A stretch of DNA of 57,157 nt from an uncultured Verrucomicrobiota bacterium. Lineage in GTDB: Bacteria > Verrucomicrobiota > Verrucomicrobiia > Palsa-1439. Position numbers and translations under genes: made by a program. The number at the start of each line of letters is the position of its first letter. The first letter of the stretch is position 1. Positions 1-36,566 of this stretch are shown here, piece by piece. Location of the stretch: positions 1-57,157 of the forward strand of contig CAZNOK010000003.1 of NCBI GenBank assembly GCA_964574605.1, in the 5' to 3' direction. The notes below the pieces were generated by a model, which saw only the letters and a list, made by a program, of their open reading frames with translations, made no database searches and was not told where the DNA came from.

Positions 1-3405
<3,405 letters not shown>

Positions 3406-3424
3406 TTCATTCTCCTGTTCTGCG

Positions 3425-8639: not shown

Positions 8640-8646
8640 CAAAACG

Positions 8647-15304: not shown

Positions 15305-15306
15305 GA

Positions 15307-21710: not shown

Positions 21711-21724
21711 GGTGTCGTTCTCCT

Positions 21725-22489
21725 TTAGAGCAGACCGCGTTGGGCCAGCAGTTCGACGAGTTTGCCGGCGGCTTCTTCGGGCGAGCCTTCCAACATCTCG
21801 GCATGGCTGCTCACCACGGGTTTGGCCAGTTGCCGGACTTCAATCTGCGCCGCGCCGGCCTCGCCGGGCGCAGCAACGGTCTCGATCTTGTTCGTTTTCA
21901 TCACGGCGCGCACCTTCGCGACGGGCACGTAACGGGGCGGTTTCTCCGCCGCCTGCACGCCAAGCACGGCAGGCAACGTCACCGCAAACTCGCCGCGCAC
22001 GCCGCCGGCGAATTCCTTGATGACGGTGGCCGTCGGGCCGTTGGCCGTGACAGCGGTCACAACGCCGATGTAGGGGAAGTTGAGTTGCTGGGCGACCAGC
22101 GCGGCGCTAAGCCCGTCGAGGTCGTCGAGCGCCTGCACGCCGGTCAGGATGAGATCGGCGGGCAACAGCCCGGCGATGACCTGACCGCAAAGCTTGGCGG
22201 CCATTTGCGTGGTCATGCCCTCCGGCGCGTCGGTGATCTTGACGGCGCGGTCGGCGCCTTTCGCCATCGCGGCGAACAACGTGTCGTCAATGTCCGGTGC
22301 ATCGAGCGCGACGACGGTGACTTTGCCGCCGTGGCGTTCCTTCAGGAGGATCGCCTGTTCGAGCGCGTGGTCGTCGCGTTCGTTGATGATCGTGCGGAGG
22401 AACGAGGTGTCGAGCGACTTGCCGTCGCCGGCGACCTCCAGTTCCTCGACGACGTCGGGAACCATTTTGAGCAGGACGAGTATGTTCAT
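21725..22489 (-). CDS. etfB: Electron transfer flavoprotein beta subunit
   Basis: MNILVLLKMVPD, NERDDHALEQA, KGADRA, DLILTGVQA, PPRY. Start ATG 22489. Confidence 0.94.
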   Translation of the reverse strand: MNILVLLKMVPDVVEELEVAGDGKSLDTSFLRTIINERDDHALEQAILLKERHGGKVTVVALDAPDIDDTLFAAMAKGADRAVKITDAPEGMTTQMAAKLCGQVIAGLLPADLILTGVQALDDLDGLSAALVAQQLNFPYIGVVTAVTANGPTATVIKEFAGGVRGEFAVTLPAVLGVQAAEKPPRYVPVAKVRAVMKTNKIETVAAPGEAGAAQIEVRQLAKPVVSSHAEMLEGSPEEAAGKLVELLAQRGLL

Positions 22490-22491
22490 GG

Positions 22492-23688
22492 TCAGTCCTC
22501 CAGTGCTTCCGCGAGCAGTTCGACCACGTCGCGGACAATCATTTTGCTGTTGCCGCCCACCGTCTTCAGCGCGTCCTCGAAGCGCGAGACTTCGTAGGGA
22601 CACGCGACGGCGAGCACGTCGGCGCCGGTGGCGATGGCTTCCTTGACGCGGCGTTCGCTGAGGCGTTCGTAGCCTTTGGCCTTGTAATAAGTGTCGAGCC
22701 ACATGCCGCCGCCGCCGCCGCCGCAACAGATGCCGTTGGCGCGGTTGTGTTCCATCTCGACGAGCTTGACGCCAGGAATCGCCTGCAACAGTTTGCGCGG
22801 CTGGTCGTAAAGGCCGTTGTGCCGGCTGAGCGCGCAGGGGTCGTGATAGGTGACGGTGTAGTTGAGTTTCTTCTTGAGCTTCGGTTTGAGCTGGTCCAAC
22901 CGGCTGGCGAGGAACGTGACGGTGTGGTCAACGTCCTGTTGCAGGCCGCGCGGTTTGTATTGGTGGACAAACGTGTCGTAAGCGTGCGCGCCGGAGGTGA
23001 CGAGCCGGTTGAACTTGTATTTGCCGAACAACTTCATCGTGTAATCGGTCAACTTGTCGAAGAGGCCGGTTTCGCCGGTGAGTCGGGCGCATTCGCCGGC
23101 GCATTTCTCCTCGTGGCCGAGGATGGCAAAATCAACACCGAGCGCGTGGAACAGCTTCGCAGTGGCCCGGCAGTTGTCCTGACCGCGCGGATGATAGGCA
23201 GTGTAACATTCGACAAACCAGAGCACGTCCGTCGGCTTGCGGTCAGCGGGGAGGATGCGGACGGGAACTTTCGAGGTCTTGACCCAGTCGGCGCGTTTGC
23301 GGGGCGACTCGCCGAGCGGGTTGCCGTAGCGGTCGGTGTTTTCGAGCGCCTTCTGGAGTTCCGCCGGCATGTCAGTCAACTGGATGAACGTCTGTTCCTT
23401 CACGAGCGGCAGCAGGACCTCGGTGAGACGGATGCCGCGCGGACATTTGTTCATGCAGGCATAACAGGTCACACACGTGAGCAGACTCTGGCTGCGCAAC
23501 ACCGTGTCGAGTTCGCCCGCCTTGAGCATCCCGATGATCCGGCGCGGCGGATATTCCATCACCTCGCCGTAGGGACACGTCCCGGCGCACATGCCGCACT
23601 GCATGCAACTGAGCACGCGTTGGCCTTCCGGGGTATTCCACAGGTTCTCCAGTGTAATCTCATTTGCATCTTCTGCGATGACTGGCAT
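22492..23688 (-). CDS. Soluble HdrD/GlpC-like Fe-S protein (2x[4Fe-4S] plus CCG domains)
   Basis: CMQCGMCAGTCP, CVTCYACMNKCP, YHDPCALSRHN, CCGGGGG, ACPY. Confidence 0.9.
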   Translation of the reverse strand: MPVIAEDANEITLENLWNTPEGQRVLSCMQCGMCAGTCPYGEVMEYPPRRIIGMLKAGELDTVLRSQSLLTCVTCYACMNKCPRGIRLTEVLLPLVKEQTFIQLTDMPAELQKALENTDRYGNPLGESPRKRADWVKTSKVPVRILPADRKPTDVLWFVECYTAYHPRGQDNCRATAKLFHALGVDFAILGHEEKCAGECARLTGETGLFDKLTDYTMKLFGKYKFNRLVTSGAHAYDTFVHQYKPRGLQQDVDHTVTFLASRLDQLKPKLKKKLNYTVTYHDPCALSRHNGLYDQPRKLLQAIPGVKLVEMEHNRANGICCGGGGGGMWLDTYYKAKGYERLSERRVKEAIATGADVLAVACPYEVSRFEDALKTVGGNSKMIVRDVVELLAEALED

Positions 23689-23701
23689 GTGTGCTCCTCT
23701 C

Positions 23702-24067
23702 TCAGGCCGTGGCCACGGCCCCGGTTTCCTCCAACTCGATGTTCACCAAATCCAACTCCTGCCCCGTCAGCAACTCGCCGCCGACTGACCGGCACTTCGG
23801 ACACTCAAACCACTGCTCGTGCACAGCAAACTCGTGCTGGCACTTCGGACAACGCGCCGTTGCAGCCACCGCCTCCAGTTCCAACCGCGAACCTTCGAGC
23901 GACGTGCCCAGCGTTGCCGCTGTGTAGCAGGACTGCATTACTTCCGGCACCACCAACCGCAACGCGCCGACGCGAACGCGCACAACGGTCACCTGTGTGC
24001 CCGGATACTTTACCAATTCCGCGCGCACCGCGTCCAGCAGCGATTCAATGATACTCATCTCATGCAT
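23702..24067 (-). CDS. hypA: Hydrogenase nickel metallochaperone HypA
   Basis: MHEMSI start and two CPKC motifs. Confidence 0.95.
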   Translation of the reverse strand: MHEMSIIESLLDAVRAELVKYPGTQVTVVRVRVGALRLVVPEVMQSCYTAATLGTSLEGSRLELEAVAATARCPKCQHEFAVHEQWFECPKCRSVGGELLTGQELDLVNIELEETGAVATA

Positions 24068-24488
24068 GGACAATCTCCCGCACGACCTCCATCGCCGCCT
24101 CGCGCGTCTCCGGCGACAACTTCGTCCCAAAATTGAAATCGTGTCCGCGGATGCTGAACAACCGGCCGCGCGGCGCCTTGCCGTATAACGCCCGACACAA
24201 CCCCAGCACATCGCCCGGCGTCATGAAATGCGCGACGGCGTGGCTGCGGAAGCCGGGATCGACTTCCTCCGTCCACCACGGCTCCGGGCTTTCCGGAATC
24301 GCGGCATCCACGAAGAGAACCTCGTCGTAATCGCGAATCACATCGGCGTGATCCACCTCAAGCTGATGCGCCGTCTCCAGCGTCACGCCGGGCAGACCAA
24401 GCTTCGACAACTCCTTGACGACGAACCAGCCGGCGCCGTCGTCGTTGCGACTGTCGTTGCCGTAGCCGATGATCAACGTCTTCTTCAT
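24060..24488 (-). CDS. Hydrogenase maturation endopeptidase (HoxW/HyaD family)
   Basis: IIGYGNDSRNDDGAG, HQL, FVDAA and H..TP; ATGA overlap with hoxH. Confidence 0.93.
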   Translation of the reverse strand: MKKTLIIGYGNDSRNDDGAGWFVVKELSKLGLPGVTLETAHQLEVDHADVIRDYDEVLFVDAAIPESPEPWWTEEVDPGFRSHAVAHFMTPGDVLGLCRALYGKAPRGRLFSIRGHDFNFGTKLSPETREAAMEVVREIVHA

Positions 24489-25906
24489 TTCTGCATTGTA
24501 TCTATCACGGTTCCGTCGGCATCCACCAACTCCACCACCATCGGCATCTTGCCGATGGCGTGCGTCGCGCAACTCAGGCACGGGTCGTAGCAGCGAATGA
24601 CCGCTTCGACGCGGTTGAGCATCCCTTCCTTGAGCTTCTTCGCCTTGACGTATTTGCGGGCGACGTGTTGGACGCCCTTGTTCATGGCGAGGTTATTGTG
24701 GCCGGTGGAAACGATCAGGTTCACCCGCTCGACCTTGCCATCCTTGTTGACCCAGTAATTGTGGATGAGCGTGCCGCGCGGCGCCTCGACGATGCCGACG
24801 CCAACCGGATTCCGCGGCTGGTTCGGAACGAGGATGTCGGTGCTGGTGATTTCCTTGTCTTCGAGCAACTGCTGCGCGCGTTCGAGCGCGTACACGATCT
24901 CGATGAGCCGCGCCCAGTGGAAATAGAAGGAGCTGGTCTGCACCCGGCGTTTCTCGCGCCAGACTTTCAACTCGGCGTTCGCCTGCGGCGTCGAGATATG
25001 GCTGCAAATGTTCAGCCGCGCCAGCGGACCGACGCGGTACATGCCGTGCGGGTAGCCGAGCTTGGCGATGAACGGGAACTTCATGTAGCTCCACGGCTCA
25101 ACCGCCTCAGCTACATAATCGAGATACTTCGCGTTCGGAATCTGATCGTGAATCACGTCGCCCTTCGCGTTGCAGAACCGGAGATTGCCGTCGTACAATT
25201 CCAACGCGCCATCGGGCTGGACGAGTCCCATGTAGTTGGAATCGAAATTCCCGAAGTCCTCGACTTCCGCGAGGTTCTTCGCGTGGTAGCCTTTGAGCAA
25301 ATCGAGCGCGAACTTCGCCTGCTCGAACGCCGCCGGCATTCCCTTCAACATCGTGTCGTGTTGCTCCGCGGTGAGCGCCTTGTTGACGCCGCCGGGCACC
25401 GGGAAGTCCGCGTGAATCTTGCGTCCAGCGACGAGTTTGATCATTTCCTGGCCGAACTTGCGCAGGAGCACACCCTTGACGGCGATGTCGGGCGCGGCGG
25501 CGACGAGGCCGATGACGTTGCGTTTCAGCGGATCGCTATCGAAGCCGAGCAACATATCCGGCGCGCTGAGGTGGAAGAAACTGAGCGCGTGGGACTGGAT
25601 GATTTGCCCCATGTGCATCAACTCGCGCAGCATCTTCGCCGTGCGCGGAATCGTGCGGCCGACGATGGCATCGCACGCCTTGGCGCTGGCGAGCAGGTGG
25701 CTGACCGGGCAAATGCCGCAGGTGCGCGGCGTGATTTGCGGCATCTCGGTGTAGTGCCGGCCTTCGCAGAATTTCTCGAACCCGCGGAATTCGACGACGT
25801 GGAAACGGGCGTCATCCACATTGCCTTTGGCGTCCACGTGAATCGTGATCTTCGCGTGCCCCTCGATGCGGGTCACGGGATTGATGAGGATGGTCTTGCT
25901 GGTCAT
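24485..25906 (-). CDS. hoxH: [NiFe]-hydrogenase large subunit, HoxH-like (group 3d)
   Basis: PVTRIEGHAKI, L1 motif PRTCGICPVSH, L2 motif RCYDPCLSCATH plus extension. Confidence 0.93.
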   Translation of the reverse strand: MTSKTILINPVTRIEGHAKITIHVDAKGNVDDARFHVVEFRGFEKFCEGRHYTEMPQITPRTCGICPVSHLLASAKACDAIVGRTIPRTAKMLRELMHMGQIIQSHALSFFHLSAPDMLLGFDSDPLKRNVIGLVAAAPDIAVKGVLLRKFGQEMIKLVAGRKIHADFPVPGGVNKALTAEQHDTMLKGMPAAFEQAKFALDLLKGYHAKNLAEVEDFGNFDSNYMGLVQPDGALELYDGNLRFCNAKGDVIHDQIPNAKYLDYVAEAVEPWSYMKFPFIAKLGYPHGMYRVGPLARLNICSHISTPQANAELKVWREKRRVQTSSFYFHWARLIEIVYALERAQQLLEDKEITSTDILVPNQPRNPVGVGIVEAPRGTLIHNYWVNKDGKVERVNLIVSTGHNNLAMNKGVQHVARKYVKAKKLKEGMLNRVEAVIRCYDPCLSCATHAIGKMPMVVELVDADGTVIDTMQK

Positions 25907-25907
25907 T

Positions 25908-26459
25908 CTAGTCGTACCTCATGTTCTTCTCGTTAAATTGCGGGATGCGCCCGGCGAGCAGCTCGGTGAGCGCAAACCAGATGCAGTCGGCGTCGGGCGG
26001 ACAGCCGGGAATGTGGAGGTCCACCTTGACAATCTCCTGGAGCGGATGCGCTTTCGGCAACAGCTTCGGCACGATCGGATCGTTCGGGATGCAGGCGACC
26101 TTGGTGCTCTCGGTCTGCTCGTAGGCGCGGCTAAGGCAGTCGCGCAGCGCAAACTGGTTTCGCAACGACGGGATGTTTCCGTTGACGGCGCAATCGCCGA
26201 GCGCGATGAGCACCTTGCAACGCTCGCGCAGCATCTTCAGTTCGTGTTCCTGATCGGTGTTGTTGACGCAGCCCTCGACGATGCCGACGTCCACGCGCGG
26301 CATGTCCTTGACCTTGATGTCCACGATCGGGCTGAACAAAATATCAACGTGCTTCACGAGTTCGAGGATCCGCTCGTCAATGTCGAGAAACGACATGTGG
26401 CAGCCCGAACAGCCGCTCAACCACATCGTTGCCACTTTTACTTTACCGTTTGTGCTCAT
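25908..26459 (-). CDS. hoxY: [NiFe]-hydrogenase small subunit, HoxY-like (single cluster)
   Basis: 183 aa with WLSGCSGCHMS, LGDCAVNG, IPGCPP. Confidence 0.93.
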   Translation of the reverse strand: MSTNGKVKVATMWLSGCSGCHMSFLDIDERILELVKHVDILFSPIVDIKVKDMPRVDVGIVEGCVNNTDQEHELKMLRERCKVLIALGDCAVNGNIPSLRNQFALRDCLSRAYEQTESTKVACIPNDPIVPKLLPKAHPLQEIVKVDLHIPGCPPDADCIWFALTELLAGRIPQFNEKNMRYD

Positions 26460-26480
26460 GCGTAAACGTTCTCCAGTCTC

Positions 26481-26536
26481 TGTAGCCGCGAACCTGTTCG
26501 CGGCTTTGTCGGTCTGCGAGCAGGCTCGCGGCTACA
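26481..26536. repeat. GTAG-type REP doublet (REPIN-like)
   Basis: TGTAGCCGCGAAC-CT-GTTCGCGGC ... TGCGAGCAGGCTCGCGGCTACA; same family as 54269-54344. Confidence 0.85.
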
Positions 26537-26541
26537 ATTCT

Positions 26542-28335
26542 TCATGCGAACACAGCCTCCAAAATCGCTTTGTCATCGCGCGCCTCGCCGGCGGCGGGCA
26601 ACACCGGCCGCAGCGTCAGCTTCCGGCCCTCAAGATTCGTCACGGTGCCTGACTTCTCGCACCAGATGGTCGCGGGCAACACGACGCTCGCCTTCTCCGT
26701 CAACGCCGACTTGTAGCTCGCTTGCACGACGACGCACTCGATTTGTTCGAGCAACGCCGGGACGTGTTTCTCTTCAAGCAGGCTCGCGCCACCGTCGGGC
26801 GCATCGCTGGCGACGATGTGCAGGAACTTCAGAGGCTTGGCATCAAGCCACGGCCCGATTTCCTCGATCGCCGCGATGCCGGTTTGCGACATCGCCATCG
26901 CGTTGGCGCTGACAGGCAGGCCGAGCAGCAACGGTCCGCCGCTGCCGGCGTTGGTTTCGAGGATTGCGATGAGGCGCTCCATCACGGTGATGCCGATCGG
27001 CGTCATCGCATTGGGGCCATAGACAATCGCCGGGCGCTGCGCGTTGGCGAGCGTGGCTTTGACCTTGTCCCAAAGTTTGCTTTCGAGGCTGACGACGTTC
27101 GCGGCAACATCGGCGTACTGATCCAAATCGCTCTTGCGGGCGTGGAACACGAGCAGCTTTGCGCCGGCTTTGCGGACGGCGATGCGGATGCGCGCGGCCA
27201 CGACGCCGTTGTCGCGGCTCGGCTGCGCGCCGAGAACGATGATGGCGTCGGCGTCCTGCAGCTTGCGGAGCGCGTCCTCGCTGAACTTCGGTTCGGCGCA
27301 GAGCGCGGCTTCGTTGGCACCGACGTACATTGCGGCGCCGCTGATTTTGGCGGCGACAGCCGCCGTCTCGTTTGTGACGCGCGGAGCAAGGAGCAATGCT
27401 TTCTCCGCTTTCTTGACCTTCGCGGCTTTCTTGACGGCGGCAAGAGCTTCGTCCCACGTCGCGGGCTTGCCTTTGATGAGCGGCGTGGTGATGCGTTCGC
27501 GCGGCTCGGCCCAAGTCTGATACCGGCCTCTGACGCAGAGATGGCCTTTGTTGACCGGGCTGTCGGGATCGCCCCAGACGTTGACGATGCGGTTTTCTTT
27601 CGTGTGCACCATCAGGCCGCAGCCGACGGGGCATTCGGTGCACGTCGTCAGGACCTGCTTGCAACTGGTCCATTGGCCGCGGAACGCACTGGCCTTGTCG
27701 AAGAGCGAGCCGGTCGGGCAACTCACGACGCAGGCACCGCAGTTCGTGCAGGTCTCGGACGCGCCAAACGTCGTGTTCATGTCCACGACGATTTGGTTCT
27801 TGCTGCCGCGGTTGGCGATATCGAGCGTGTGGACGCCTTCGATCTCGTCGCACGTGCGGACACAACGCGCGCAGAGGATGCAACGGTTCTGGTCAATGCC
27901 GAAGTACGGCGCCGTCAGGTCAATCGGCATCGCAGGATACAGGTACGGATAGCGGATGCCGGTGATGCCGTGGATGTAGCCTTGATGCTGGAGGCCGCAG
28001 TCGCCCTTGTTGTACTCGCACATCGGGCAGATGTGGTTGCGTTCGCTGAACAGCAATTCGAGCGTCGCCTTCCGCAAGCTGACGAGACGTTCGCTGTGCG
28101 TGGTGATCTTCGTGCCGTCCACCGCCGGCGTCGCGCAAGCTGGGGCGACCTTCGGGCTGCCTTCGATCTCGACGACGCAAAGACGACAGCCGCCCCACGG
28201 CGTCAGGCCCTTGAGGTAGCAGAGCGTCGGGATGTAGATGTTGTGGGCGCGGGCGATGTCGAGGATGGTCTGACCTTGTTCGCCGTCGCAGACTTGGCCG
28301 TTGATGGTGACGGAGATTTTCTTGGGGGCAATCAT
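26542..28335 (-). CDS. HoxU/NuoG-like Fe-S subunit with C-terminal molybdopterin-oxidoreductase-like domain (HydA-like)
   Basis: PTLC..GGCRLC [2Fe-2S], HICPMC, CILCARC, CTNCGAC and CTECPVGC...LC, then a MopB-like fold (VVLPATIWCEKSGTVTNLEGR). Start ATG 28335; 597 aa. Confidence 0.9.
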   Translation of the reverse strand: MIAPKKISVTINGQVCDGEQGQTILDIARAHNIYIPTLCYLKGLTPWGGCRLCVVEIEGSPKVAPACATPAVDGTKITTHSERLVSLRKATLELLFSERNHICPMCEYNKGDCGLQHQGYIHGITGIRYPYLYPAMPIDLTAPYFGIDQNRCILCARCVRTCDEIEGVHTLDIANRGSKNQIVVDMNTTFGASETCTNCGACVVSCPTGSLFDKASAFRGQWTSCKQVLTTCTECPVGCGLMVHTKENRIVNVWGDPDSPVNKGHLCVRGRYQTWAEPRERITTPLIKGKPATWDEALAAVKKAAKVKKAEKALLLAPRVTNETAAVAAKISGAAMYVGANEAALCAEPKFSEDALRKLQDADAIIVLGAQPSRDNGVVAARIRIAVRKAGAKLLVFHARKSDLDQYADVAANVVSLESKLWDKVKATLANAQRPAIVYGPNAMTPIGITVMERLIAILETNAGSGGPLLLGLPVSANAMAMSQTGIAAIEEIGPWLDAKPLKFLHIVASDAPDGGASLLEEKHVPALLEQIECVVVQASYKSALTEKASVVLPATIWCEKSGTVTNLEGRKLTLRPVLPAAGEARDDKAILEAVFA

Positions 28336-28339
28336 GGTC

Positions 28340-31300
28340 TTACTTCGCCTCCACTTTGATGTCGCAACGCAGGCAGCGTAGGCACTCGGCCTTCGCCTGC
28401 CACTCGGTGAATGTCGGCGAAACTTCGGTGTTGCCGACGCGTTGTTCGGGCGGAATCGCGCGCGCGGGATTGCGCGCTCCGCCTTGCGACGGGGGCGGAA
28501 TCGTCTGGTCATACTCGAACTTCGGCCACAACTCCTCGAACCGGTCGAGCCCCGTCAACGCGCGGTCAATCTGCTTCGCGGCTTTCTTGCCGTAACCCAT
28601 CGCCGTGGCAACGTTGGCCGCGCCGCTGACGTAATCGCCGCCGGCATAGACTTTCGGGTTGCTGGTCTGGAGCGTCCACGGGTCAACCTTCACCGTGCCC
28701 CACGAGGTCGTTTCGAGACCGAGACCTTTCGTCAACGCGCTGTCGGCTTTCTCGCCGATGGCTTTGATGATGGCGTCGCACGGAATGATGTAGGTGTCCT
28801 TCGTCATCACCGGCGCGCGCCGGCCTTTCGAGTCGTGCTTGCCGGGGACGGTCTTGGCGACTTCGAGGCCGGTGAGTTTACCGGACTTGTCGGTCACGAG
28901 CCGCAACGGCGCGGCCATCGTGATGAGCTTCGCGCCTTCTTCGAGCGCCTGCTCAACTTCCTCGCCGATGGCCGGCATGTCCTCGCGGGTGCGACGATAC
29001 ACAATCGTCACAACCGCGCCTTGGCGCATCGCGGTGCGCGCGGCGTCAATCGCGGAGTTGCCGCCGCCGATGACGAGCACTTTCTCGCCGATCTTCTTCG
29101 GCTTGGTGAGATACGAGAGCGAGGAGTAAAGACCTTTCGCATCGTCGCCCGGAACACCGAGCGCCTGTTCCTCCCACGTGCCGACGCCAATGAACACGGC
29201 GTCGTTCTCTTTCACGAACTTATCGAGCTTCGTCAGCTTGGTGTTGAACTGGAATTTGACTCCCGCGGCTTTGATCAGCGCGATTTCCTTGTCCACAATC
29301 CGCTTCGGCAGGCGGTATTCGGGGAGCGCGTATCGCAACATGCCGCCGGCGTCGGCGGCTTTCTCGAACACGGTGACTTTGTGTCCGAGCAATGCGAGAT
29401 AAAACGCCGCGCTCAATCCCGACGGACCAGCGCCGATGACGGCGATCGTCTTGCCGGTCGGTTTCTGTTTGCGTTTCAGGATGCGCTTCAAAACTTTCTT
29501 CGCGACCGGACCTTCGTAGGCGACGTCGCCGATGTAACGGTGCGTCTCGCGCATGTTGATCGGGGCGTCCGCGCCGGCGCGCCGGCAACGGAGTTCGCAC
29601 GGATGCTGGCAGACGCGGCCGGTCGAGGCGGGCAACGGGTTGTCCATCACGACCTGCTCGAAGGCGTCCTCGACGCGGTCTTCCTTGAGCAACTGGAGGA
29701 AGGCCGGGATGTTCATGTTCAGCGGGCAGGTGTTCTCGCACGGCGAAATCGCAAGCGCGCTGCAGGCGCCGGCCACACAACGATGTTCGCGGATGTGTTG
29801 CTCGTACTCGTGACGGAAATAGCGGAGCGTCGTGAGGACCGGGTTCGGCGCGGTCTGTCCGAGGCCGCAGAGGCTGGCGGAGCGGACCGTTTCGCACAGG
29901 TCTTCGAGCAACGCGAGGTCGCTGAGATGTCCTTCGCCCCGGCAAATCTTTTCGAGGATGCCGAGCATCTGTTTCGTGCCGACGCGGCACGGCGGGCATT
30001 TGCCGCAGGATTCATCGCAGCAGAATTCGAGGAAGAACCGCGCAAAATCCACCATGCAGCCGTCTTCGTCCACGACGACCATGCCGCCGGAACCCATGAT
30101 CGAGCCGAGCTTTTGAAGCGTTTCGTACTCGACGGGCGTGTCGAGATGCGCGGCGGGAATGACGCCGCCGGACGGGCCGCCGGTCTGGACGGCTTTGAGT
30201 TGTTTCCCGTTGGGGATGCCGCCGCCGATTTCGTAAATGATGTCGCGCAACGGCGTGCCGAACGGAACCTCGGCGAGGCCGGTGTTCTTGATCTTGCCGG
30301 CGAGCGCAAAAACTTTTGTGCCTTTCGTACGCTCGGTGCCGATGGCGGAATACCACGCGGCGCCTTTGCGGATGACAAGCGGGATGGCGGCCCAAGTCTC
30401 GACATTATTGATGTTGGTCGGCTTGCCCCAGAGACCGCGCTGCGCCGGGAACGGCGGCCGCGGCATCGGTTGGCCGCGGCGTCCTTCGATGGAACGCATG
30501 AGCGCGGTTTCCTCGCCGCAAACGAACGCGCCGGCACCGATGCGAAGCTCGAGGTCGAAGTTGAAACCTTTCTCGAACAAATTCTTGCCGAGCAAACCGA
30601 GTTTGTACGCTTGGTCAATCGCGATCTGGAGGCGTTTGATGGCGAGCGGATACTCGGCGCGGATGTAAATGAATCCGCGGTTCGCGCCCATCGCGTAGCC
30701 GCCGATGGCCATGCCTTCGATGACGCGATGCGGGTCGCCTTCGAGGACGGCCCGGTTCATGAACGCGCCGGGGTCACCTTCGTCGGCGTTGCAGATGATG
30801 TATTTCGGCGTAAGGTGCGCGCGGGACATGAGTTCCCATTTCACGCCGGTCGGGAACCCGGCGCCGCCACGACCGCGCAGGCCGCTGGCTTTGACTTCGG
30901 CGATGACCTGCTCGGGCGTCATCGAGGTGAGGACTTTGCCGAGCGCGGCGTAACCGTCGCGACCGATGTACTCCTCAATTTTTTCGGCGTCTATGAGTCC
31001 GCAATTTTCGAGAATGATTTTCGTCTGCTTCGCGAGGAATGCGAAGTCGCGCGCGGTGGTGACGACGTTGTCGCCGATCTCGGCCTTCGGCAGCAGTCGC
31101 TCGCAAGGCCGGCCTTTGACGAAATGTTCCTCGACCAGTTCCGGCACATCGTCCGCGCTGACACGCTGGTAAAACGTGCCGTCGGGCAACACGAGGATGA
31201 CCGGGCCGAGGTCGCACGGTCCCATGCAGCCGGTGACCGTCATTTGGATTTCGTCGGCCAAGCTGCGTTTCTTGAGTTCGGCGACGAGCGTCTCTTGGAC

Positions 31301-31363
31301 GGCGTGACAGCCCGAGCTGAGACACCCGGCGCCGCCGCAAACCAATACGTGTGATCGAATCAT
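28340..31363 (-). CDS. NuoF/HoxF/HydB-like flavoprotein fused to a GltD/NfnB-like FAD-NADPH domain
   Basis: N-terminal CGGAGC/GCMGPC, GRGGAGFP, NADEGDPGAFM, FVCGEETAL, ESCGKCPPCR. Then PCENTCP, GRVCQHPCE, GAGPSG, GGGNSAID, YRR, CLRC. Confidence 0.93.
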   Translation of the reverse strand: MIRSHVLVCGGAGCLSSGCHAVQETLVAELKKRSLADEIQMTVTGCMGPCDLGPVILVLPDGTFYQRVSADDVPELVEEHFVKGRPCERLLPKAEIGDNVVTTARDFAFLAKQTKIILENCGLIDAEKIEEYIGRDGYAALGKVLTSMTPEQVIAEVKASGLRGRGGAGFPTGVKWELMSRAHLTPKYIICNADEGDPGAFMNRAVLEGDPHRVIEGMAIGGYAMGANRGFIYIRAEYPLAIKRLQIAIDQAYKLGLLGKNLFEKGFNFDLELRIGAGAFVCGEETALMRSIEGRRGQPMPRPPFPAQRGLWGKPTNINNVETWAAIPLVIRKGAAWYSAIGTERTKGTKVFALAGKIKNTGLAEVPFGTPLRDIIYEIGGGIPNGKQLKAVQTGGPSGGVIPAAHLDTPVEYETLQKLGSIMGSGGMVVVDEDGCMVDFARFFLEFCCDESCGKCPPCRVGTKQMLGILEKICRGEGHLSDLALLEDLCETVRSASLCGLGQTAPNPVLTTLRYFRHEYEQHIREHRCVAGACSALAISPCENTCPLNMNIPAFLQLLKEDRVEDAFEQVVMDNPLPASTGRVCQHPCELRCRRAGADAPINMRETHRYIGDVAYEGPVAKKVLKRILKRKQKPTGKTIAVIGAGPSGLSAAFYLALLGHKVTVFEKAADAGGMLRYALPEYRLPKRIVDKEIALIKAAGVKFQFNTKLTKLDKFVKENDAVFIGVGTWEEQALGVPGDDAKGLYSSLSYLTKPKKIGEKVLVIGGGNSAIDAARTAMRQGAVVTIVYRRTREDMPAIGEEVEQALEEGAKLITMAAPLRLVTDKSGKLTGLEVAKTVPGKHDSKGRRAPVMTKDTYIIPCDAIIKAIGEKADSALTKGLGLETTSWGTVKVDPWTLQTSNPKVYAGGDYVSGAANVATAMGYGKKAAKQIDRALTGLDRFEELWPKFEYDQTIPPPSQGGARNPARAIPPEQRVGNTEVSPTFTEWQAKAECLRCLRCDIKVEAK

Positions 31364-31378
31364 GCGGGGTGACTCCAG

Positions 31379-31741
31379 TTACTTCTGTTTGCCGACAGCG
31401 AGTTTCTCGACCTTCTTGCCCTTCTGGAGGTGCTCGGCGACAATCTGCTTCGCCTTCTCGGCGTCGAGCTGGGCGTAGGTCGTCTTCTCGCCGCTGGCTT
31501 CCTCGATCTGGATGACCGGCTCGATGTTTTCGAGGCCGTGCTCGCCGGTGACGCGGACTTCCACGTCGTCGAGACCGCGCTTCTCGATCTCGTCGAGCAT
31601 GGTCTTCATGACTTCGCGCGCGCCGGCCGCAATGCCGCTGGTGCCCATGCTGACGACGACGCGGTACTTCTTCCCGCTCTCGCGCAGGGCGACTTGCTTC
31701 TGGGCTTTTTCTTTAAGTTGTTTGAGTTGTTCGAGGTTCAT
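31379..31741 (-). CDS. Thioredoxin-like ferredoxin-fold protein (HndB/HydD-like) with no cysteines
   Basis: VSMGTSGIAAGAREV, TGEHGLENIEP and IVAEHL align with the HndB pattern MGTCGIAAGA / TGC.G.C..EP. Confidence 0.85.
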   Translation of the reverse strand: MNLEQLKQLKEKAQKQVALRESGKKYRVVVSMGTSGIAAGAREVMKTMLDEIEKRGLDDVEVRVTGEHGLENIEPVIQIEEASGEKTTYAQLDAEKAKQIVAEHLQKGKKVEKLAVGKQK

Positions 31742-32199
31742 GATGTTTTCTCCTGTGAGCTAAACTGAAATTTTTCCGTGTCGATCTGGTAGTGGAGGCG
31801 AATGTCAACTTTCGGGTTGGCGGCGCAAAGTGTGAGGATGGTCGAGTTCAAGTCACCGAGCGCGGGACGGTCAACGTGATTGAGGCGCATCGAGGCGGTG
31901 ACGCTGGTGCCTTTGCCGGGCGCGCTTTTGACGTAGAAACTGCCGCCACACATCTCGGTGGTTTGACGGAGCAACGCGAGACCGAGGCCGATGTTTTTCT
32001 TACGCGCGCGTTTCGTTGTGCCGCCGCGCAAGACGCGCTGCAACGTCGCGCTGTCCATGCCGTGGCCGTTGTCGCGGATGCGCAGGATGAGCCAGTCGCG
32101 TTTCTGGCTTTCCAGGACGCTGATCTCAACCTTGCTGGCATTGGCGGCGAGTGAGTTCATCGCGATGTCGAGAATGTGCAGTGACAGTTCCTCAAACAT
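31738..32199 (-). CDS. Stand-alone HATPase_c (GHKL) ATP-binding protein
   Basis: ELSLHILDIAMNS, IRDNGHGM, GLGLALL, GKGT, HVDRPALGD; this type is familiar from hnd/hyd clusters. Confidence 0.88.
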   Translation of the reverse strand: MFEELSLHILDIAMNSLAANASKVEISVLESQKRDWLILRIRDNGHGMDSATLQRVLRGGTTKRARKKNIGLGLALLRQTTEMCGGSFYVKSAPGKGTSVTASMRLNHVDRPALGDLNSTILTLCAANPKVDIRLHYQIDTEKFQFSSQEKTS

Positions 32200-32728
32200 A
32201 TTTTTTTAACTCGGTCTTCACCAACGCCGGGATCTTGTCGGCTTGAAGCTTGCCGTACACGTCGTCGCCGACGGCGATGGCCGGAGCGAGCGCGCAGGCG
32301 CCGATGCAACGGGCGGTTGTCAGGCTGAACCGGCCGTCCTTGGTGGTCTCGCCTTCCTTGATGCCGAGTTCCTTCTCCATGGCGGCCATGATGGCGTCGG
32401 AGCCGCGGACATGGCAGCCGGTGCCGCGGCAGACCATGATGGTGTGTTTGCCGCGCGGCGTGAGAGTGAACAGATGATAAAACGTCACGACGCCGTACAC
32501 GTGGGAGATCGGCAGTTTCAACGCGCTGGCGATGTAGCGGAGGACGTCGGCGCTGAGGTAGCCGAACATCTGTTGCGCGGCGTGGAGGATTTGAATGAGC
32601 GCAGTCGGCTCGTGGTTGTAGTTCTCCATCGTCTTGTCGAGCGCGGCAAAACGCGGGTCGCCGCTGGGATGTGTGGTGTCCATCGCGGCAAGGCGCGCGG
32701 TCTGGCTGATTTGTGATTGGTCGCTCAT
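32192..32728 (-). CDS. NuoE/HoxE/HydC-like [2Fe-2S] subunit
   Basis: LIQILH.AQ..FGYL, VVTFY, CRGTGCHVRG, CIGACALAP. Confidence 0.93.
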   Translation of the reverse strand: MSDQSQISQTARLAAMDTTHPSGDPRFAALDKTMENYNHEPTALIQILHAAQQMFGYLSADVLRYIASALKLPISHVYGVVTFYHLFTLTPRGKHTIMVCRGTGCHVRGSDAIMAAMEKELGIKEGETTKDGRFSLTTARCIGACALAPAIAVGDDVYGKLQADKIPALVKTELKKYV

Positions 32729-33069
32729 CGTAGTCCTGCCTCCCAGAGTTTGCCGGCGGCCTCGTAGCTGCTCAACTGCGTGCTCAAAACGGTCACGCCA
32801 GATTCTTCGGCCTCGGCAAGGGTTTGCGGGTCAAGTTTGCGTCCTCGGGTAATCAATACGGCGGAAATATCTTTCATGCTGGCGACGGAGACGACATTAC
32901 GGTGGACTTGGATCGTGATCCATAACACGTCGGGTTTGGCGCTGGCAAGCACGTCGCTCAATAAATCGCCGGCGTAACAGCCGCATACTTGGGCGTCGGC
33001 GTTGCCAGTCAGCAGTTCGGCCTGCAACAGTCCCAGCAGTTCTTTGATGGTCATAGTGCCGTCTTTCAT
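32725..33069 (-). CDS. DRTGG-domain protein
   Basis: YAGDLLSDVLA, WITIQVHRNVVSVA, SSYEAAGKL. Start could be 33054. Confidence 0.85.
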   Translation of the reverse strand: MKDGTMTIKELLGLLQAELLTGNADAQVCGCYAGDLLSDVLASAKPDVLWITIQVHRNVVSVASMKDISAVLITRGRKLDPQTLAEAEESGVTVLSTQLSSYEAAGKLWEAGLR

Positions 33070-34028
33070 GTTTTGTGTTCCGCCTTCTTCAACTTGATTT
33101 CAGCGTGCAAATGAGTGCCGATGCCAAGTTCGGTGTGCAGATCGAACCGGTCGGCGCATTTTTTTATGTTGGTCAATCCCATGCCGGCGCCAAAGCCGAG
33201 CTGGCGCGCGAGCGGCCCGGCCGTGGACCAGCCTTCCTGCATGGCGAGATTGACGTCTTCGATGCCGGGACCGCGATCCACGGCGTCAATCGTGACGCGA
33301 TCGGGCTCGATGACCGCACGCAGCTCGCCGCCAATGGAGTGGATGATGATGTTGGTCTCGGCCTCGTACGCGACAATGGCGGCGCGGCGGCGGGCTTCGG
33401 GATCAATGCCGCGCTGGCGCAGGGTTTCGCGCATTCGTTGCGAGACTTTGCCGGCGCTGTCGAAGTCGCCGGATTTGATCGGGGCGCGAAGGACGATGCG
33501 GTGGGCTTTTTCGTCGGCCTGACGTTCAGCGACCAGCACGGCTTCGTGGGCGACGGCTTGTTCGGCGCGTTCTTCGAGGTGATGAACAAGGGCGTTGGAG
33601 ATGTCGCCGCGGGTGATGATGCCGACCAACTGGTCGCAGACGTCCAAGACCGGGAACCGCCCGAAACCGTGGCGGTCGAACTCAGCGACGGCGCGCACGA
33701 GCGTATAGTGGTCGCGCAACGTGACGGGGTTTTGCGTCATCCATTTGTCGGAGGCGTCGTTGATGTGACCTTTGTCGAGGGCATTGATGATGTCCTCGAT
33801 GCTGACGACGCCGAGCAATTTGTCGTCTTGTGTGATGGGCACACCGGAGATCCGATGTGTTTTCATCAGGTGCTGGATGGCGCGGAGCGAGTCGGAAGGA
33901 CGCGCCGTGATCGGGTCTTTGTGCATGGCGTCGCGCACACGCAACTCATAGATGAGCAATTGCGCCAGCGTCACCTTGCGCCTGTCGGTGGCACTCAGGA
34001 TTTGGTTGATGGCGGTCGGGTTTTCCAT
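33066..34028 (-). CDS. CBS-pair protein fused to an RsbT/RsbW-like Ser/Thr kinase
   Basis: CBS motifs ISGVPI and GRFPVLD...LVGIITRGDI; kinase motifs YEAETNIIIH, DRGPGI, GFGAGMGL.NIK. Start ATG 34028. Confidence 0.9.
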   Translation of the reverse strand: MENPTAINQILSATDRRKVTLAQLLIYELRVRDAMHKDPITARPSDSLRAIQHLMKTHRISGVPITQDDKLLGVVSIEDIINALDKGHINDASDKWMTQNPVTLRDHYTLVRAVAEFDRHGFGRFPVLDVCDQLVGIITRGDISNALVHHLEERAEQAVAHEAVLVAERQADEKAHRIVLRAPIKSGDFDSAGKVSQRMRETLRQRGIDPEARRRAAIVAYEAETNIIIHSIGGELRAVIEPDRVTIDAVDRGPGIEDVNLAMQEGWSTAGPLARQLGFGAGMGLTNIKKCADRFDLHTELGIGTHLHAEIKLKKAEHKT

Positions 34029-34164
34029 GAGAAGCTCCGCCGGTGTCAAATCCACTTTCCGCTGGGCAACGCTTGACGCAGAACCGAACCTGCAAAGCCA
34101 CAGGAATCCTGTGCAGTATTTAAGCGCATTGTGTGTTGAATGAGCATCGCCCGCGCTACTGTTT

Positions 34165-34180
34165 AGCAACAGCCTTGCCA
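34165..34180 (-). promoter_or_regulatory. Sigma54 (RpoN) -24/-12 promoter
   Basis: Minus strand TGGCAAGGCTGTTGCT has exact GG-N10-GC spacing, about 137 bp upstream of the first operon ATG. Confidence 0.75.
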
Positions 34181-34282
34181 CACCCAATATGCTGTTGGCG
34201 GACATAACGTAAACCACTGGAAGCAAAACTGATAAAGATAATCGTCCAGTGCCGCTTCCCTAGGGTCGTATCGCGATGCGCC

Positions 34283-34325
34283 GACAACTTGTCAGTACTT
34301 TGCCATTAGGATGACAAACTGGCAA
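34283..34325. promoter_or_regulatory. Putative upstream activator (bEBP) sites
   Basis: TGTCA 34290, TGCCA 34301 and TGACA 34312 (11-bp phasing) plus TGGCA 34320; dyad TGCCA-N6-TGACA. Confidence 0.45.
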
Positions 34326-34361
34326 GATAACCCGCTTGGTTTGCCTCCGGTCAGCTTTGTT

Positions 34362-34664
34362 TCACGGGTGCGAAACTGTCGGGGTTTCCGCGTGCAAACC
34401 TGTTCGCCACAAGAAGTAGATAGTGGCAATACACATTCCCACTGCCACACCGCACAGCACCACACCAGTGGTTGTCAGCCGCAGGAGAAGAACCTCGTTC
34501 TCGAACGCCCGGCGGTACGCTTCCGGCACGCCGGCTTTGGATAACACGCTTATGGAATGCTCCAAACCATAAAACAGCGCCACGAAGAATCCCCCAAGCA
34601 CGATGAACGCAGCCACGGCTTTCTTCAGGCCGTGACGCCCCAACGGCCGCAACAAAGTATTCAT
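34362..34664 (-). CDS. Hypothetical small membrane protein (2 TM)
   Basis: AAGGA RBS before the ATG; two hydrophobic segments. Confidence 0.65.
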   Translation of the reverse strand: MNTLLRPLGRHGLKKAVAAFIVLGGFFVALFYGLEHSISVLSKAGVPEAYRRAFENEVLLLRLTTTGVVLCGVAVGMCIATIYFLWRTGLHAETPTVSHP

Positions 34665-34735
34665 ATGGTTCCTTACGCCTTTCTCAGTTGTAACGTAAAT
34701 GTCTGCTGGTCATCTTTAGCAGTCTTCGCGCCATC

Positions 34736-35902
34736 CTACTTCAATCCATCGCGTATCGCAGCGACGCCGACGCCCAAAACCTTCAACGCCACCGCCTCAA
34801 GGTCGTTTTCCTCCCCTTGCAGGTGGGTTGTGCGATGAACGTGCGTCGCCGATTTGCCCGGCACCAGTGCCAGCGCGGGTGACGAGCTTTCCAACTCGTA
34901 AAACGCCCCCATCTTGCCATTGTCGTTGTAGCTGTTGACCGCGTCGCCGCTGAACGGGTCATCCTGAAGTTTCCACATCGAATCGACATAATCGGCCGCG
35001 CCTTTCGGCAACGTAAACTGAGCGATTGTCAGCACCCTGTTGACCGCGTCGTAGCTACCAAGAACCGATTTGGCGCGTTTCGGCGTCAGGCCGATTTTGC
35101 TCCGGCACTTCGCGTCGGCGGCAAAGAACAACACGCCATCCTTCACCACAAGGCGTTCCGCCGGCACTTTGCCGAAGTAGGCATCATTGACGATTGGGCC
35201 AAGCTTCGCTTCCGGGCCTTTCACGAACGGCACGACAACCGTCGTAGCCGGCGAGGCGTTGAGCATGCCGAGCATCCAAATGGAGAGCAGCCCGGTCTCC
35301 TTCGTCCACGCGGTCTTGCCGGTGTTCTTGAGCGTATTGACCGACTCGACGGCAACGGCCTTGACCGACGGTTTCAAGCGGACGCCAAGATGCTTCGTGG
35401 CATCCACAAGCCGGACTTCGCGCGTGACTTCGACGTCGAACTTCGTCCCGGAGTAGTTGGTCAACTGGAAGGCTCGGCGGAAGACGGCCTTGTCGGCGCT
35501 CTTGCTGACGGTCTCGAACGGCTCCGTGTCAATCGGCGCGGGCGTGAACCAGTGTTCGAGATCGAACGGCATGCCTTTGGCGAAGAAAACAGAGAACTGT
35601 CCGCCTTCCGGCCCGATCCAGAAACGGTCTTCGCCGCCGAAGACGTTGATGTGCTGCACGAATTTCCCGGAGGCGACGAGTTCACGGTTGATCCAGCCGA
35701 AACTGAAACCATTGGGACCCGCGGCGGTGCTGGTCATGATGCGGCCTTGGTAGGCGGGAACGATGGCCGCTTGGGCGTCGCCCTTGGCGAGCACGATCAC
35801 GTCGGTGTGCTTCTTCAGGAAATCAACGTCGTCTTGGAATTGAATGGCCATGAGTTTCTCCGCAGTAAGAACAGCAACGGCAAGGCAAATGATCCGTTTC
35901 AT
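34736..35902 (-). CDS. Conserved secreted protein, DUF6786-like
   Basis: Signal peptide, QGRIMTST, FGGEDRFWIGPEGGQFS, FYELESSSPA. Start ATG 35902. Confidence 0.8.
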   Translation of the reverse strand: MKRIICLAVAVLTAEKLMAIQFQDDVDFLKKHTDVIVLAKGDAQAAIVPAYQGRIMTSTAAGPNGFSFGWINRELVASGKFVQHINVFGGEDRFWIGPEGGQFSVFFAKGMPFDLEHWFTPAPIDTEPFETVSKSADKAVFRRAFQLTNYSGTKFDVEVTREVRLVDATKHLGVRLKPSVKAVAVESVNTLKNTGKTAWTKETGLLSIWMLGMLNASPATTVVVPFVKGPEAKLGPIVNDAYFGKVPAERLVVKDGVLFFAADAKCRSKIGLTPKRAKSVLGSYDAVNRVLTIAQFTLPKGAADYVDSMWKLQDDPFSGDAVNSYNDNGKMGAFYELESSSPALALVPGKSATHVHRTTHLQGEENDLEAVALKVLGVGVAAIRDGLK

Positions 35903-36002
35903 GCCCGCGGATGATGTCAGAAACCGCCAGCGGTTGCAAGCCGGGACGCGCAACGCTTTCCGTTGTTGACAGGCCAAGAACGCAGGAGTGAAATGCAGCC
36001 GG

Positions 36003-36560: not shown

Positions 36561-36566
36561 ACCAGT

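Follow-up and report, generated by a model that had tools for sequence, protein, structure and literature searches.

Where would the low-potential electrons of a bifurcating-type hydrogenase go if its ferredoxin-like domain had been replaced by a module resembling an NADPH-dependent flavoprotein? The question is raised by an operon in a 57,157-nt stretch of DNA (the whole of which we call the window) from an uncultured Verrucomicrobiota bacterium of the Palsa-1439 lineage (GCA_964574605.1, contig CAZNOK010000003.1, positions 1-57,157). Seven closely spaced minus-strand genes at 24485-32728, defined from open reading frames (ORFs) and their translations, encode HydC, a HATPase, a thioredoxin-like (Trx-like) protein, a HydB that continues into a GltD-like module (HydB-GltD), HydA, HydS and HydL. 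A preliminary description, made from the sequence alone, had listed HydL, HydS, a NuoG-like subunit, a NuoF-GltD fusion and a NuoE, and the ORF list confirms their positions; absent from it were the HATPase_c (153 aa) and Trx-like (120 aa) genes, which lie between NuoE and NuoF. The predicted enzyme probably links H2 to both NAD and NADP.

Predicted cofactor sites of the hydrogenase and its fused HydB

Each subunit was compared against all solved structures, and the bit scores of the matches are quoted here. The best match of HydL was 7T2R_D, a chain of the structure of the bifurcating NiFe-HydABCSL of Acetomicrobium mobile (A. mobile; 579 bits), followed by HoxH (5XF9_D, 429 bits) and MvhA (5ODC_F, 400 bits); its best NCBIfam match, VhuA, fell below the cut-off of that model. 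The HydL translation carries RTCGICPVSH and DPCLSCATH, containing the N-terminal RxCGxC and C-terminal DPCxxCxxH that we take to be the NiFe ligand motifs of the large subunit. HydS was closest to 7T2R_E (191 bits, compared with 157 bits for HoxY). HydC was closest to the HydC of the bifurcating hydrogenase 8A6T, and 7T2R_C came sixth (131 bits) behind other bifurcating HydC/NfnC chains. The five genes for HydA, HydB, HydC, HydS and HydL are contiguous, as expected for NiFe-HydABCSL, and a search of the genome, which is 86.7% complete, gave no match to the FeFe domain PF02906. Judged by its sequence, the operon is that of a soluble, Bfu-type (HydABCSL-like) five-subunit [NiFe]-hydrogenase. This agrees with the architecture proposed at the outset, with 7T2R chains ranking first for HydL, HydS and HydA and second for the HydB core.

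HydA, counted as 597 aa from Met60 of a longer ORF (26542-28512), matched 7T2R_A best (354 bits), with only residues 5-399 aligned, and it aligns over its full length to complex I 75-kDa/NuoG subunits. Its Pfam domains are Fer2_4, NADH-G_4Fe-4S_3, a 2x[4Fe-4S] domain, Molybdop_Fe4S4 and Molybdopterin (MopB). These correspond to a [2Fe-2S] cluster, a His-ligated [4Fe-4S] cluster, a 2x[4Fe-4S] pair and a fifth [4Fe-4S] cluster, with a MopB-like domain in the C-terminal half, in agreement with the five cluster motifs and MopB fold first described for this subunit. Pfam shows neither a Molydop_binding nor a Pyr_redox domain in HydA.

HydB-GltD is a protein of 1007 aa in a single open frame (28340-31363). 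Domain parsing with hidden Markov models finds the NuoF domains followed by Fer4_20 and Pyr_redox_2 in this one protein: 2Fe-2S_thioredx at residues 4-79, Complex1_51K at 157-328 (E 4.7e-46), SLBB at 352-401, NADH_4Fe-4S at 439-523 (9e-34), Fer4_20 at 527-617 (8.5e-19) and Pyr_redox_2 at 639-923 (2.9e-31), the Pfam domain E-values running from 1e-6 to 1e-46. NCBIfam gives nuoF_fam at 126-524 and PRK12771/GltD-type models at 493-1002. The strings by which the fusion had been recognized are all located in this protein, HIREHRCVAGAC at residues 523-534, GAGPSG at 644-649, GGGNSA at 766-771 and YRR at 789-791.

The HydB core (residues 2-538) matches the HydB chains of a bifurcating FeFe enzyme (7Q4V_B, 790 bits) and of the NiFe enzyme (7T2R_B, 783 bits) and retains the features of bifurcation-type subunits. 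These are the N-terminal [2Fe-2S] domain (Cys9/14/19 and Cys46/50), the FMN/NAD(H) site (flavin mononucleotide, FMN) with its invariant Gly loop, the ligands Cys453/456/459/499 of the N3-type [4Fe-4S] cluster B1, and a Cys3His site formed by Cys436, His523, Cys529 and Cys534. Conservation was read in alignments of 13 and of 61 fused proteins, the latter reaching down to 52% identity; the first Cys residues of the N-terminal [2Fe-2S] domain are missing in some distant fused relatives.

The Cys3His site fixes the point at which the HydB core ends. In A. mobile HydB the ligands of the B2 cluster are given as Cys438, Cys476, His525, Cys531 and Cys536 (PMC8880783), which with a two-residue offset are Cys436, Cys474, His523, Cys529 and Cys534 here. 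Four of these are invariant in both alignments and are predicted to hold either a B2 cluster or Zn; Cys474 is present here without being invariant, as is the case for Cys476 of A. mobile. Since the B2 ligands map onto invariant columns, HIREHRCVAGAC is the end of the HydB core and not the start of the GltD module. The first GltD cluster ligand, Cys542, comes 8 residues after Cys534, and in sister proteins the first ferredoxin-type Cys comes about 12 residues after the same H-x5-C-x4-C motif. Pfam detects no Fer4-type domain (the ferredoxin-like B3/B4 domain) after residue 534, where Fer4_20 and Pyr_redox_2 stand instead.

The closest solved relative of the module (residues 540-1001) is Caldicellulosiruptor (Csac) NfnA (9BOV_A residues 102-567, 330 bits), followed by Pyrococcus (Pfu) NfnL (5JCA_L, 292 bits), Thermococcus NfnA, Sporomusa StnC and Thermotoga NfnB, then GltD and DPD. 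The NfnA alignment extends to the C-terminal end, where RCLRCD here corresponds to RCLECG in NfnA. Cys997 and Cys1000 are invariant in the fused proteins, and all seven Cys residues of the module are invariant or nearly so. In our reading Cys542/546/997/1000 would bind one [4Fe-4S] cluster, and Cys585/589/593 together with His608 would bind a second [4Fe-4S] cluster proximal to the flavin adenine dinucleotide (FAD). His608 occupies, in residue-by-residue alignments, the column of Lys170 of StnC, which is described as strictly conserved and essential, and of a Glu in NfnL (PMC10482914, available text). This column holds His in 13, Lys in 22 and an unreadable residue in 4 of 39 fused HydB rows.

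The FAD-binding GxGxxG, the GGGNxAxD loop and YRRTR are common to the module and to the NADPH-dependent NfnA and NfnL. The YRRTR stretch is identical to that of Pfu NfnL and Csac NfnA, and YRR is found in 38 of the 39 fused rows. Arg684, which in NfnL contacts the flavin N5, is also conserved. These features agree with the earlier proposal of a single complex with predicted NiFe, FMN/NAD(H) and GltD-type FAD/NAD(P)H sites, and the architecture with two nucleotide sites is, in our estimate, very probably correct.

Spread of the fusion and exchange of the tail

Logan contigs of three other sequencing runs (X5 record 5, X6 record 12 and X8 record 27) span the junction near position 29750 with 0 differences, and the holders of the sequence are all lake or freshwater metagenomes. 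A word-indexed search returned at least 119 other protein clusters of the same architecture (120 listed including that of the window). All 120 contain Complex1_51K and/or NADH_4Fe-4S plus Fer4_20 and Pyr_redox_2, most are 1000-1060 aa long with identities of 51-93%, and they are named by their sources as metagenome-assembled genomes (MAGs) of Verrucomicrobia, Acidobacteria, Rhodospirillales and Thermosediminibacterales. The junction piece alone (residues 440-700) retrieves 608 clusters (50% identity) at E <=1e-30, partial and other architectures among them. In a sample of 80 loci, with one genome per species, 42 carry a fused HydB (39 full length, 2 as two high-scoring pairs and 1 cut by a contig end), and their hosts include Chloroflexota, Acidobacteriota, Thermodesulfobacteriota, Bacillota, Bacteroidota, Planctomycetota, Omnitrophota, Armatimonadota, Gemmatimonadota, an alphaproteobacterium and a Promethearchaeota (Loki) MAG. 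An artefact of assembly, a possibility raised when the fusion was first described, or of gene calling is practically eliminated by the 1007-codon frame, the three bridging runs and the 7 relatives that share the frame, together with the 119 clusters and the 42 loci.

The proposed search for such fusions beside NiFe genes found a NiFe large subunit of this type beside the fused form at 5 of 42 loci and beside the unfused form at none of 38, and four of the five (L001, L025, L037 and L038) match the gene order of the window. FeFe HydA genes directly follow the fused HydB in about ten loci by motif scans. The tally of FeFe and NiFe partners was made with short motif patterns, which undercount, and a Pfam check was made for the partners in L014, L032, L005, L034 and L021. 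By Pfam, formate-dehydrogenase-like MopB subunits adjoin the fused HydB in L014 and L032. In L005 (9439-16749, Loki MAG) and L034 (8986-15384, Acidobacteriota) it is followed by a short HoxU-like protein and a 526-527-aa Glu_synthase (GltB-like) protein. As it is found beside NiFe, FeFe, formate-dehydrogenase-like and GltB-like genes, the fused HydB is a general variant of the core and is not specific to one operon.

Two of these loci have further features. The L005 cluster is flanked by two glutamate dehydrogenase genes. In a Balneolales MAG (L015:3805-16201) the gene after a fused HydB encodes a distant NiFe large subunit of 431 aa (31% identity), and the same locus holds a second, unfused NuoF with HoxU-like, HydS and HydL genes, placing two NiFe systems next to each other.

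Forty relatives were searched and 20 regions read. Within the family of the window an 11-gene block is conserved, with CBS/HATPase, DRTGG, HydC, HATPase, Trx, HydB, HydA, HydS, HydL, protease and HypA. Eight genomes of the family have the GltD-type HydB (G000, which is that of the window, and G001, G002, G003, G011, G016, G019 and G020), and seven have a HydB with a 2x[4Fe-4S] tail (G008, G012, G015, G022, G023, G024 and G036, the last from a neighbouring family). The ferredoxin-tailed orthologues are 70-76% identical over residues 1-549 and carry CxxCxxCxxxCP twice at the same point, which bears out the statement that the GltD module stands in place of a 2x[4Fe-4S] tail. Another four loci end at a contig edge before or within the HydB tail, and L114 is a fused row cut by its contig end. 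In every genome the matches listed at >=70% identity are of a single tail form. In G028 and G038, of the same class and another family, HydB stops right after the Cys3His motif and HydA is short and HoxU-like, which is the Hox layout.

In a tree of HydB cores all members of the family fall into one clade (SH-aLRT 100), with ferredoxin-tailed and GltD-tailed proteins intermixed. The family's GltD modules make up a single monophyletic group, and their tree conflicts with that of the cores. The module of the window groups with those of the same-genus genomes G001 and G003 (100/97), to which its HydL and HydS are also closest. Its HydB core (by tree) and its Trx gene (by identity) are closest to G016 and G011, which belong to other genera. 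The simplest account of this mosaic operon (28340-31741 compared with L098-L101) would be recombination within the operon. Repeated independent fusion within the family was considered and rejected, because the discordance between core and module trees indicates recombination; the three or more switches on the core tree are therefore not to be counted as independent gains.

Possible routes for electrons

In models of Bfu enzymes, FMN, B1 and C1 form the bifurcation site and the low-potential path runs from C1 through B3/B4 to ferredoxin, which docks between the NfnC C-terminal domain and the B3/B4 domain; a B4 4Cys/4Ala mutant of Nfn-Bfu loses bifurcation (PMC12018979, available text). By analogy, H2 would be split at HydL, from where HydS and the chain of five clusters in HydA would carry its electrons to B1 and FMN for the reduction of NAD+. 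Electrons of the second branch would be taken by the mobile [2Fe-2S] domain of HydC to the GltD clusters, which stand in for B3/B4, and two electrons would be gathered on the FAD and leave as NADPH. The net reaction would be 2 H2 + NAD+ + NADP+ = NADH + NADPH + 2 H+, reversible, with H2 as the middle-potential partner, NAD as the high-potential partner and NADP in the place of ferredoxin. We favour this path from C1 through the GltD clusters and FAD to NADP+ because the module occupies the B3/B4 position and alternates with B3/B4 in the sister operons. The wiring with NADP(H) replacing ferredoxin on the low-potential branch, and its stoichiometry, are nonetheless put forward tentatively, as somewhat short of an even bet.

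The potential of the NADPH couple is about -380 mV. Of the other couples, H2 is put at -414 mV and NADH in vivo at about -280 mV (PMC9304861). By Nernst arithmetic the mean acceptor potential of ~-330 mV equals that of the H2 couple at roughly 150 Pa; by the same arithmetic NADH alone equilibrates with H2 near 3 Pa. Given these two pressures, the coupling would be meaningful in both directions in anoxic lake water.

A broader proposal would be that of a ferredoxin-free FMN/Fe-S bifurcating hydrogenase that exploits the gap between NADH and NADPH in vivo, with NAD+ as the downhill and NADP+ as the uphill acceptor and with NADPH helping to push NADH electrons onto protons in the reverse direction. 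The tails would be swappable cassettes, in which sister genomes recombine a ferredoxin-like tail against an NADP module and thereby re-target the low-potential branch. As fused HydB proteins also stand beside FeFe, formate-dehydrogenase-like and GltB-like genes, they would form a general NADP-type Bfu sub-class. We consider it rather doubtful that all of these parts hold together.

Several observations count against a route without ferredoxin. The HoxEFUYH of Synechocystis is reported to bifurcate with ferredoxin and NAD although its HoxF is without B3/B4, with a putative ferredoxin docking site near E1/F2 (10.64898/2026.06.25.734504, 2026 preprint, available text); loss of B3/B4 therefore does not prove loss of ferredoxin. 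A "likely ferredoxin" is predicted as acceptor at the GltA domain of a fused HydB (PMC11216029, available text). The window itself contains a PFOR gene and an Mvh/Hdr-like hydrogenase, so a ferredoxin pool is available, and ferredoxin clearly has a place in the metabolism of this organism. Furthermore, the NuoF/GltD junction exists without the FMN domain in stand-alone proteins of ~600 aa retrieved with the junction piece (P0147, P0156, P0168, P0170 and P0195), all five of which, when tested, contained NADH_4Fe-4S (PF10589), Fer4_20 and Pyr_redox_2. The NCBIfam model NF009410 (PRK12771) seems to describe this form. These proteins keep the B1 cysteines, which suggests that a B1-type cluster communicates with the GltD clusters and favours wiring into the main chain as in Stn.

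In such a wiring the GltD/FAD/NADPH module would feed or drain the main chain at B1, and the low-potential partner would still be ferredoxin, with a docking site close to the [2Fe-2S] clusters of HydC and of the HydB N terminus. H2 and NADPH would be alternative middle-potential partners of the same FMN bifurcation site, giving a combined hydrogenase and Nfn-type transhydrogenase with four substrates. This arrangement gains from the Hox precedent, the ferredoxin predicted for the fused HydB, the PFOR gene and the stand-alone proteins, and also from the closest homologue of the module, which is the non-bifurcating mid-potential input module of NfnA/StnC. It has to explain why the module is at the exact place of B3/B4 and not on HydA as in Stn, why module and ferredoxin-like tail alternate within one family as if equivalent, and why the strictly conserved Lys of StnC is His here; in addition, a separate Stn-like gene pair in the same genome would make the transhydrogenase function redundant. 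On balance we regard it as fairly unlikely.

Two further points count against the favoured route from C1 to NADP+. Among Kiritimatiellia genomes with a fused hydB, 132 of 163 also keep an unfused hydB (10.64898/2026.10.06.756941), and an unfused copy beside the fused one fits a different function while being silent on which. Moreover, the predicted preference of the module for NADP(H) rather than NAD(H) is a reading of motif only.

The two nucleotide sites could also work independently. Electrons from H2 would then reach FMN and FAD by ordinary chains, and NAD+ or NADP+ would be reduced separately, as in an H2-to-NAD(P)H valve that combines an NAD-linked Hox with an NADP-linked group 3b enzyme. 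Both sites are predicted to be complete, and non-bifurcating HydBC relatives are described (PMC9304861, available text). Those relatives, however, are without three features that are strongly conserved here, namely the Cys3His site, the cluster of HydC and the [2Fe-2S] domain at the HydB N terminus, and to connect the NADH and NADPH pools without coupling would waste the difference in their potentials. An uncoupled enzyme of this kind is improbable.

The preliminary description had named bifurcation of the NfnB type as one option. In this case the GltD FAD itself, as in NfnL, would split the electron pair of NADPH, with one electron leaving by way of the two clusters and its partner going to a separate acceptor. 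The 292-bit match to Pfu NfnL and the retained Arg684 are consistent with it, but the same Arg is conserved in the non-bifurcating StnC/NfnA, which is the closer type of module (330 bits compared with 292), and the Glu ligand of NfnL is replaced by His608. Furthermore, the conserved operon and its surroundings (20754-37745) contain no NfnS/PyrK-like subunit, nor any other cofactor placed to receive the second electron. Of the two options named at first, transhydrogenase or bifurcation of this type, it is the weaker one, and we consider it very unlikely.

The module might also be catalytically silent, with a structural or regulatory role, or use NADH, leaving an ordinary NAD-linked hydrogenase. 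Nothing speaks for this directly, although non-functional cluster branches are known in StnC (PMC10482914, available text). Across 61 proteins, with identities as low as 52%, the seven Cys residues, both glycine motifs (FAD and NAD(P)H) and YRR vary little or not at all, which makes a silent or NADH-using module very unlikely.

Neighbouring genes, known relatives and significance

The features of the operon are collected in Table 1. The protein that opens the syntenic block is likely a regulator. Its gene has tblastn matches in 17 of the 20 loci fetched from relatives (L098-L117), and no tblastn match was obtained in L105 (cut), L114, L116 and L117. Homologues of the small HATPase_c protein adjoin ordinary HydB genes in many loci, marking it by its position as an accessory gene common in HydABC operons. 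The Trx-like protein has a weak NCBIfam match to a 2Fe-2S ferredoxin model (E 7.7e-6). The maturation endopeptidase ORF overlaps the end of hydL, and its TIGR00072 match begins at residue 36; a Pfam search of this ORF gave no match.

Table 1. Genes and domains of the hydrogenase operon (window positions)
Feature	Position	Strand	Basis
CBS + HATPase-type protein, 386 aa, first gene of the syntenic block	33066..34226	-	Pfam CBS, HATPase_c_2
DRTGG-domain protein, 114 aa	32725..33069	-	Pfam PF07085; syntenic in relatives
HydC/BfuC (NuoE-like), 178 aa, predicted C1 [2Fe-2S] Cys motif	32192..32728	-	Pfam 2Fe-2S_thioredx E 3.3e-53; NCBIfam HoxE/NuoE
Small HATPase_c protein, 153 aa	31738..32199	-	Pfam HATPase_c
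Trx-like (HndB-like) protein, 120 aa, without cysteine	31379..31741	-	Translation; kept in relatives
HydB/BfuB core, residues 1-534	29762..31363	-	Pfam; 7Q4V_B and 7T2R_B matches
GltD/NfnA-type module, residues 535-1007, stop codon included	28340..29761	-	Pfam Fer4_20, Pyr_redox_2
HydA/BfuA, NuoG-like conduit, 597 aa	26542..28335	-	Pfam; 7T2R_A match
HydS, NiFe small subunit, proximal cluster only, 183 aa	25908..26459	-	Pfam Oxidored_q6 only; 7T2R_E match
HydL, group 3 NiFe large subunit, 473 aa, C-terminal extension	24485..25906	-	Translation; 7T2R_D match
Hydrogenase maturation endopeptidase	24060..24581	-	NCBIfam TIGR00072, 73.6 bits vs cut-off 47.45; syntenic
HypA nickel chaperone	23702..24211	-	Pfam HypA E 6.5e-29, ORF residues 49-159

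Upstream of the regulator genes are a 472-aa DUF6786 protein (34736-36154, E 2e-148) and an aldo/keto reductase (36567-37745). Directly downstream of hypA are EtfA (20754-21710) and EtfB (21725-22726), with an HdrD/TfrB-like CCG iron-sulfur protein (22492-23688) beside them. EtfAB and the HdrD-like gene were considered as part of the hydrogenase system and rejected, because they are syntenic only in L098 and L099, the two nearest genomes. The PFOR gene lies at 1-3483 and runs off the end of the window, and hypE/D/F/B lie at 3425-8642. Of a second group 3 NiFe hydrogenase, the large subunit is Vhu/Mvh-like (8647-10167) and the small subunit is a full-length VhuG-like protein (10415-11509). Next come an HdrA2-like (11872-14055), an HdrB-like CCG (13845-14735) and an HdrC-like (14732-15586) gene, making an Mvh/Hdr-type cluster.

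Elsewhere in the same genome there is a second HydBC-type system at positions 6053-9972 of L118 (G000:C115:6000-15971). It has a NuoE-NuoF fusion that carries the usual 2x[4Fe-4S] tail and is truncated where the contig ends. The next gene encodes a protein of 578 aa in which a [2Fe-2S] domain at the N terminus is combined with Fer4_20 and an FAD site, and this protein looks like a short Stn/NfnA-like partner. At positions 3722-8152 of L119 (G000:C100:7000-17000) a multi-domain protein of 1476 aa combines Fer4_20 with three stretches of Pyr_redox_2 and with 4Fe-4S domains at the C terminus. It contains a GltD-like part that shares 41% identity with the fused HydB (residues 540-1002), and similar ORFs of ~1500 aa occur in relatives.

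The closest characterized system is the NiFe-HydABCSL of A. mobile (7T2R/7T30; PMC8880783), which shares the five subunit roles, the N-terminal [2Fe-2S], FMN, B1 and the Cys3His site; its operon, in the available text of that paper, also has a HisK-like accessory gene. In contrast to A. mobile, HydB here is without the B3/B4 domain and has a 470-residue GltD module instead, and the C-terminal half of HydA matches the MopB family. The Cys3His position holds B2 in A. mobile and Zn in other Bfu members. The cofactors of BfuBC are described as absolutely conserved across the Bfu family (PMC9304861, available text), whereas B3/B4 is absent here and present in the sister orthologues.

StnABC/NfnABC (8OH5, 9BOV, 9N5U; PMC10482914, PMC12018979) share the HydBC-type core, a homologous GltD module and the trailing RCLxC pair. 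In the available text, however, their module is on the NuoG-like subunit and feeds B1 via five clusters, whereas here it is on HydB behind the Cys3His site. Their B subunit keeps B3/B4, no hydrogenase is present, and the proximal ligand is Lys where His608 stands here. NfnSL/NfnAB (5JCA, 4YLF) share the GltD-type FAD, two [4Fe-4S] clusters and NADPH site. They differ in having NfnS (PyrK-like, with [2Fe-2S] and FAD), for which the interval 20754-37745 holds no gene, and in the Glu that is His here; the module of the window is moreover tethered to a NuoF core. HoxEFUYH of group 3d (5XF9) shares the NuoE/F/G-like diaphorase and NiFe dimer, but its HoxF ends after B1 and its HoxU is ~240 aa, compared with 1007 aa for HydB and 597 aa for HydA. 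The available text on the Synechocystis enzyme states that it does not use NADPH (10.64898/2026.06.25.734504).

Fused forms of HydB have been noticed before. Archaeal hybrid [FeFe]-[NiFe] clusters, found in 21 genomes, are predicted to have a HydB with a GltA domain, encoded next to HydC, a NuoG-like conduit and the large subunit of a group 3 NiFe enzyme. They contain a HydA(FeFe)-HyhS fusion, whereas HydS is a separate 183-aa protein here, and only their FeFe part was expressed (PMC11216029, 2024, available text). In Kiritimatiellia a fused hydB occurs in FeFe hydABC operons of 163 genomes, including two cultured species, and its function was not addressed (10.64898/2026.10.06.756941, 2026 preprint); the partner here is NiFe, the likeness is by description, and FeFe-linked fused HydB is also among our sampled loci. 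For the protein encoded downstream of FeFe hydrogenases, the HydDB paper applies the rule "GltD but not NuoF" (PMC5037454, available text), which implies that such fused proteins had already been seen. A Bfu census chose BfuB by domain content, and its available text makes no mention of a fused form (PMC9304861).

The available portions of PMC5736913, PMC7325909, PMC7311640, PMC11406978 and PMC6085437 likewise do not mention a pairing of fused HydB with NiFe. Literature searches, whose coverage excluded most subscription journals, found no description of a bacterial NiFe-HydABCSL with a fused HydB, of tail alternation within a family or of the His ligand. The statement that no characterized NiFe enzyme has this layout therefore stands within that coverage, while the HydB fusion itself is not new (PMC11216029; 10.64898/2026.10.06.756941). 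The locus is a known HydABCSL scaffold joined to a previously noticed HydB fusion, and the fused HydB is in print as a gene-level prediction. As annotation pipelines label the fused HydB as plain NuoF, hydrogenase surveys probably place its partners in "NAD/ferredoxin" classes.

The site and mode of low-potential electron delivery is a live question for Bfu enzymes, and here the domain concerned, B3/B4, is replaced by a predicted NADP(H) flavin module. Sister operons that are alike except for the tail form a ready-made pair in which the choice between ferredoxin and NADP is directly testable. This pair bears on whether the low-potential branch can have a two-electron nucleotide end, on whether ferredoxin may be dispensable, and on whether NADPH formation could be coupled to H2 even when the level of H2 makes direct reduction uphill.

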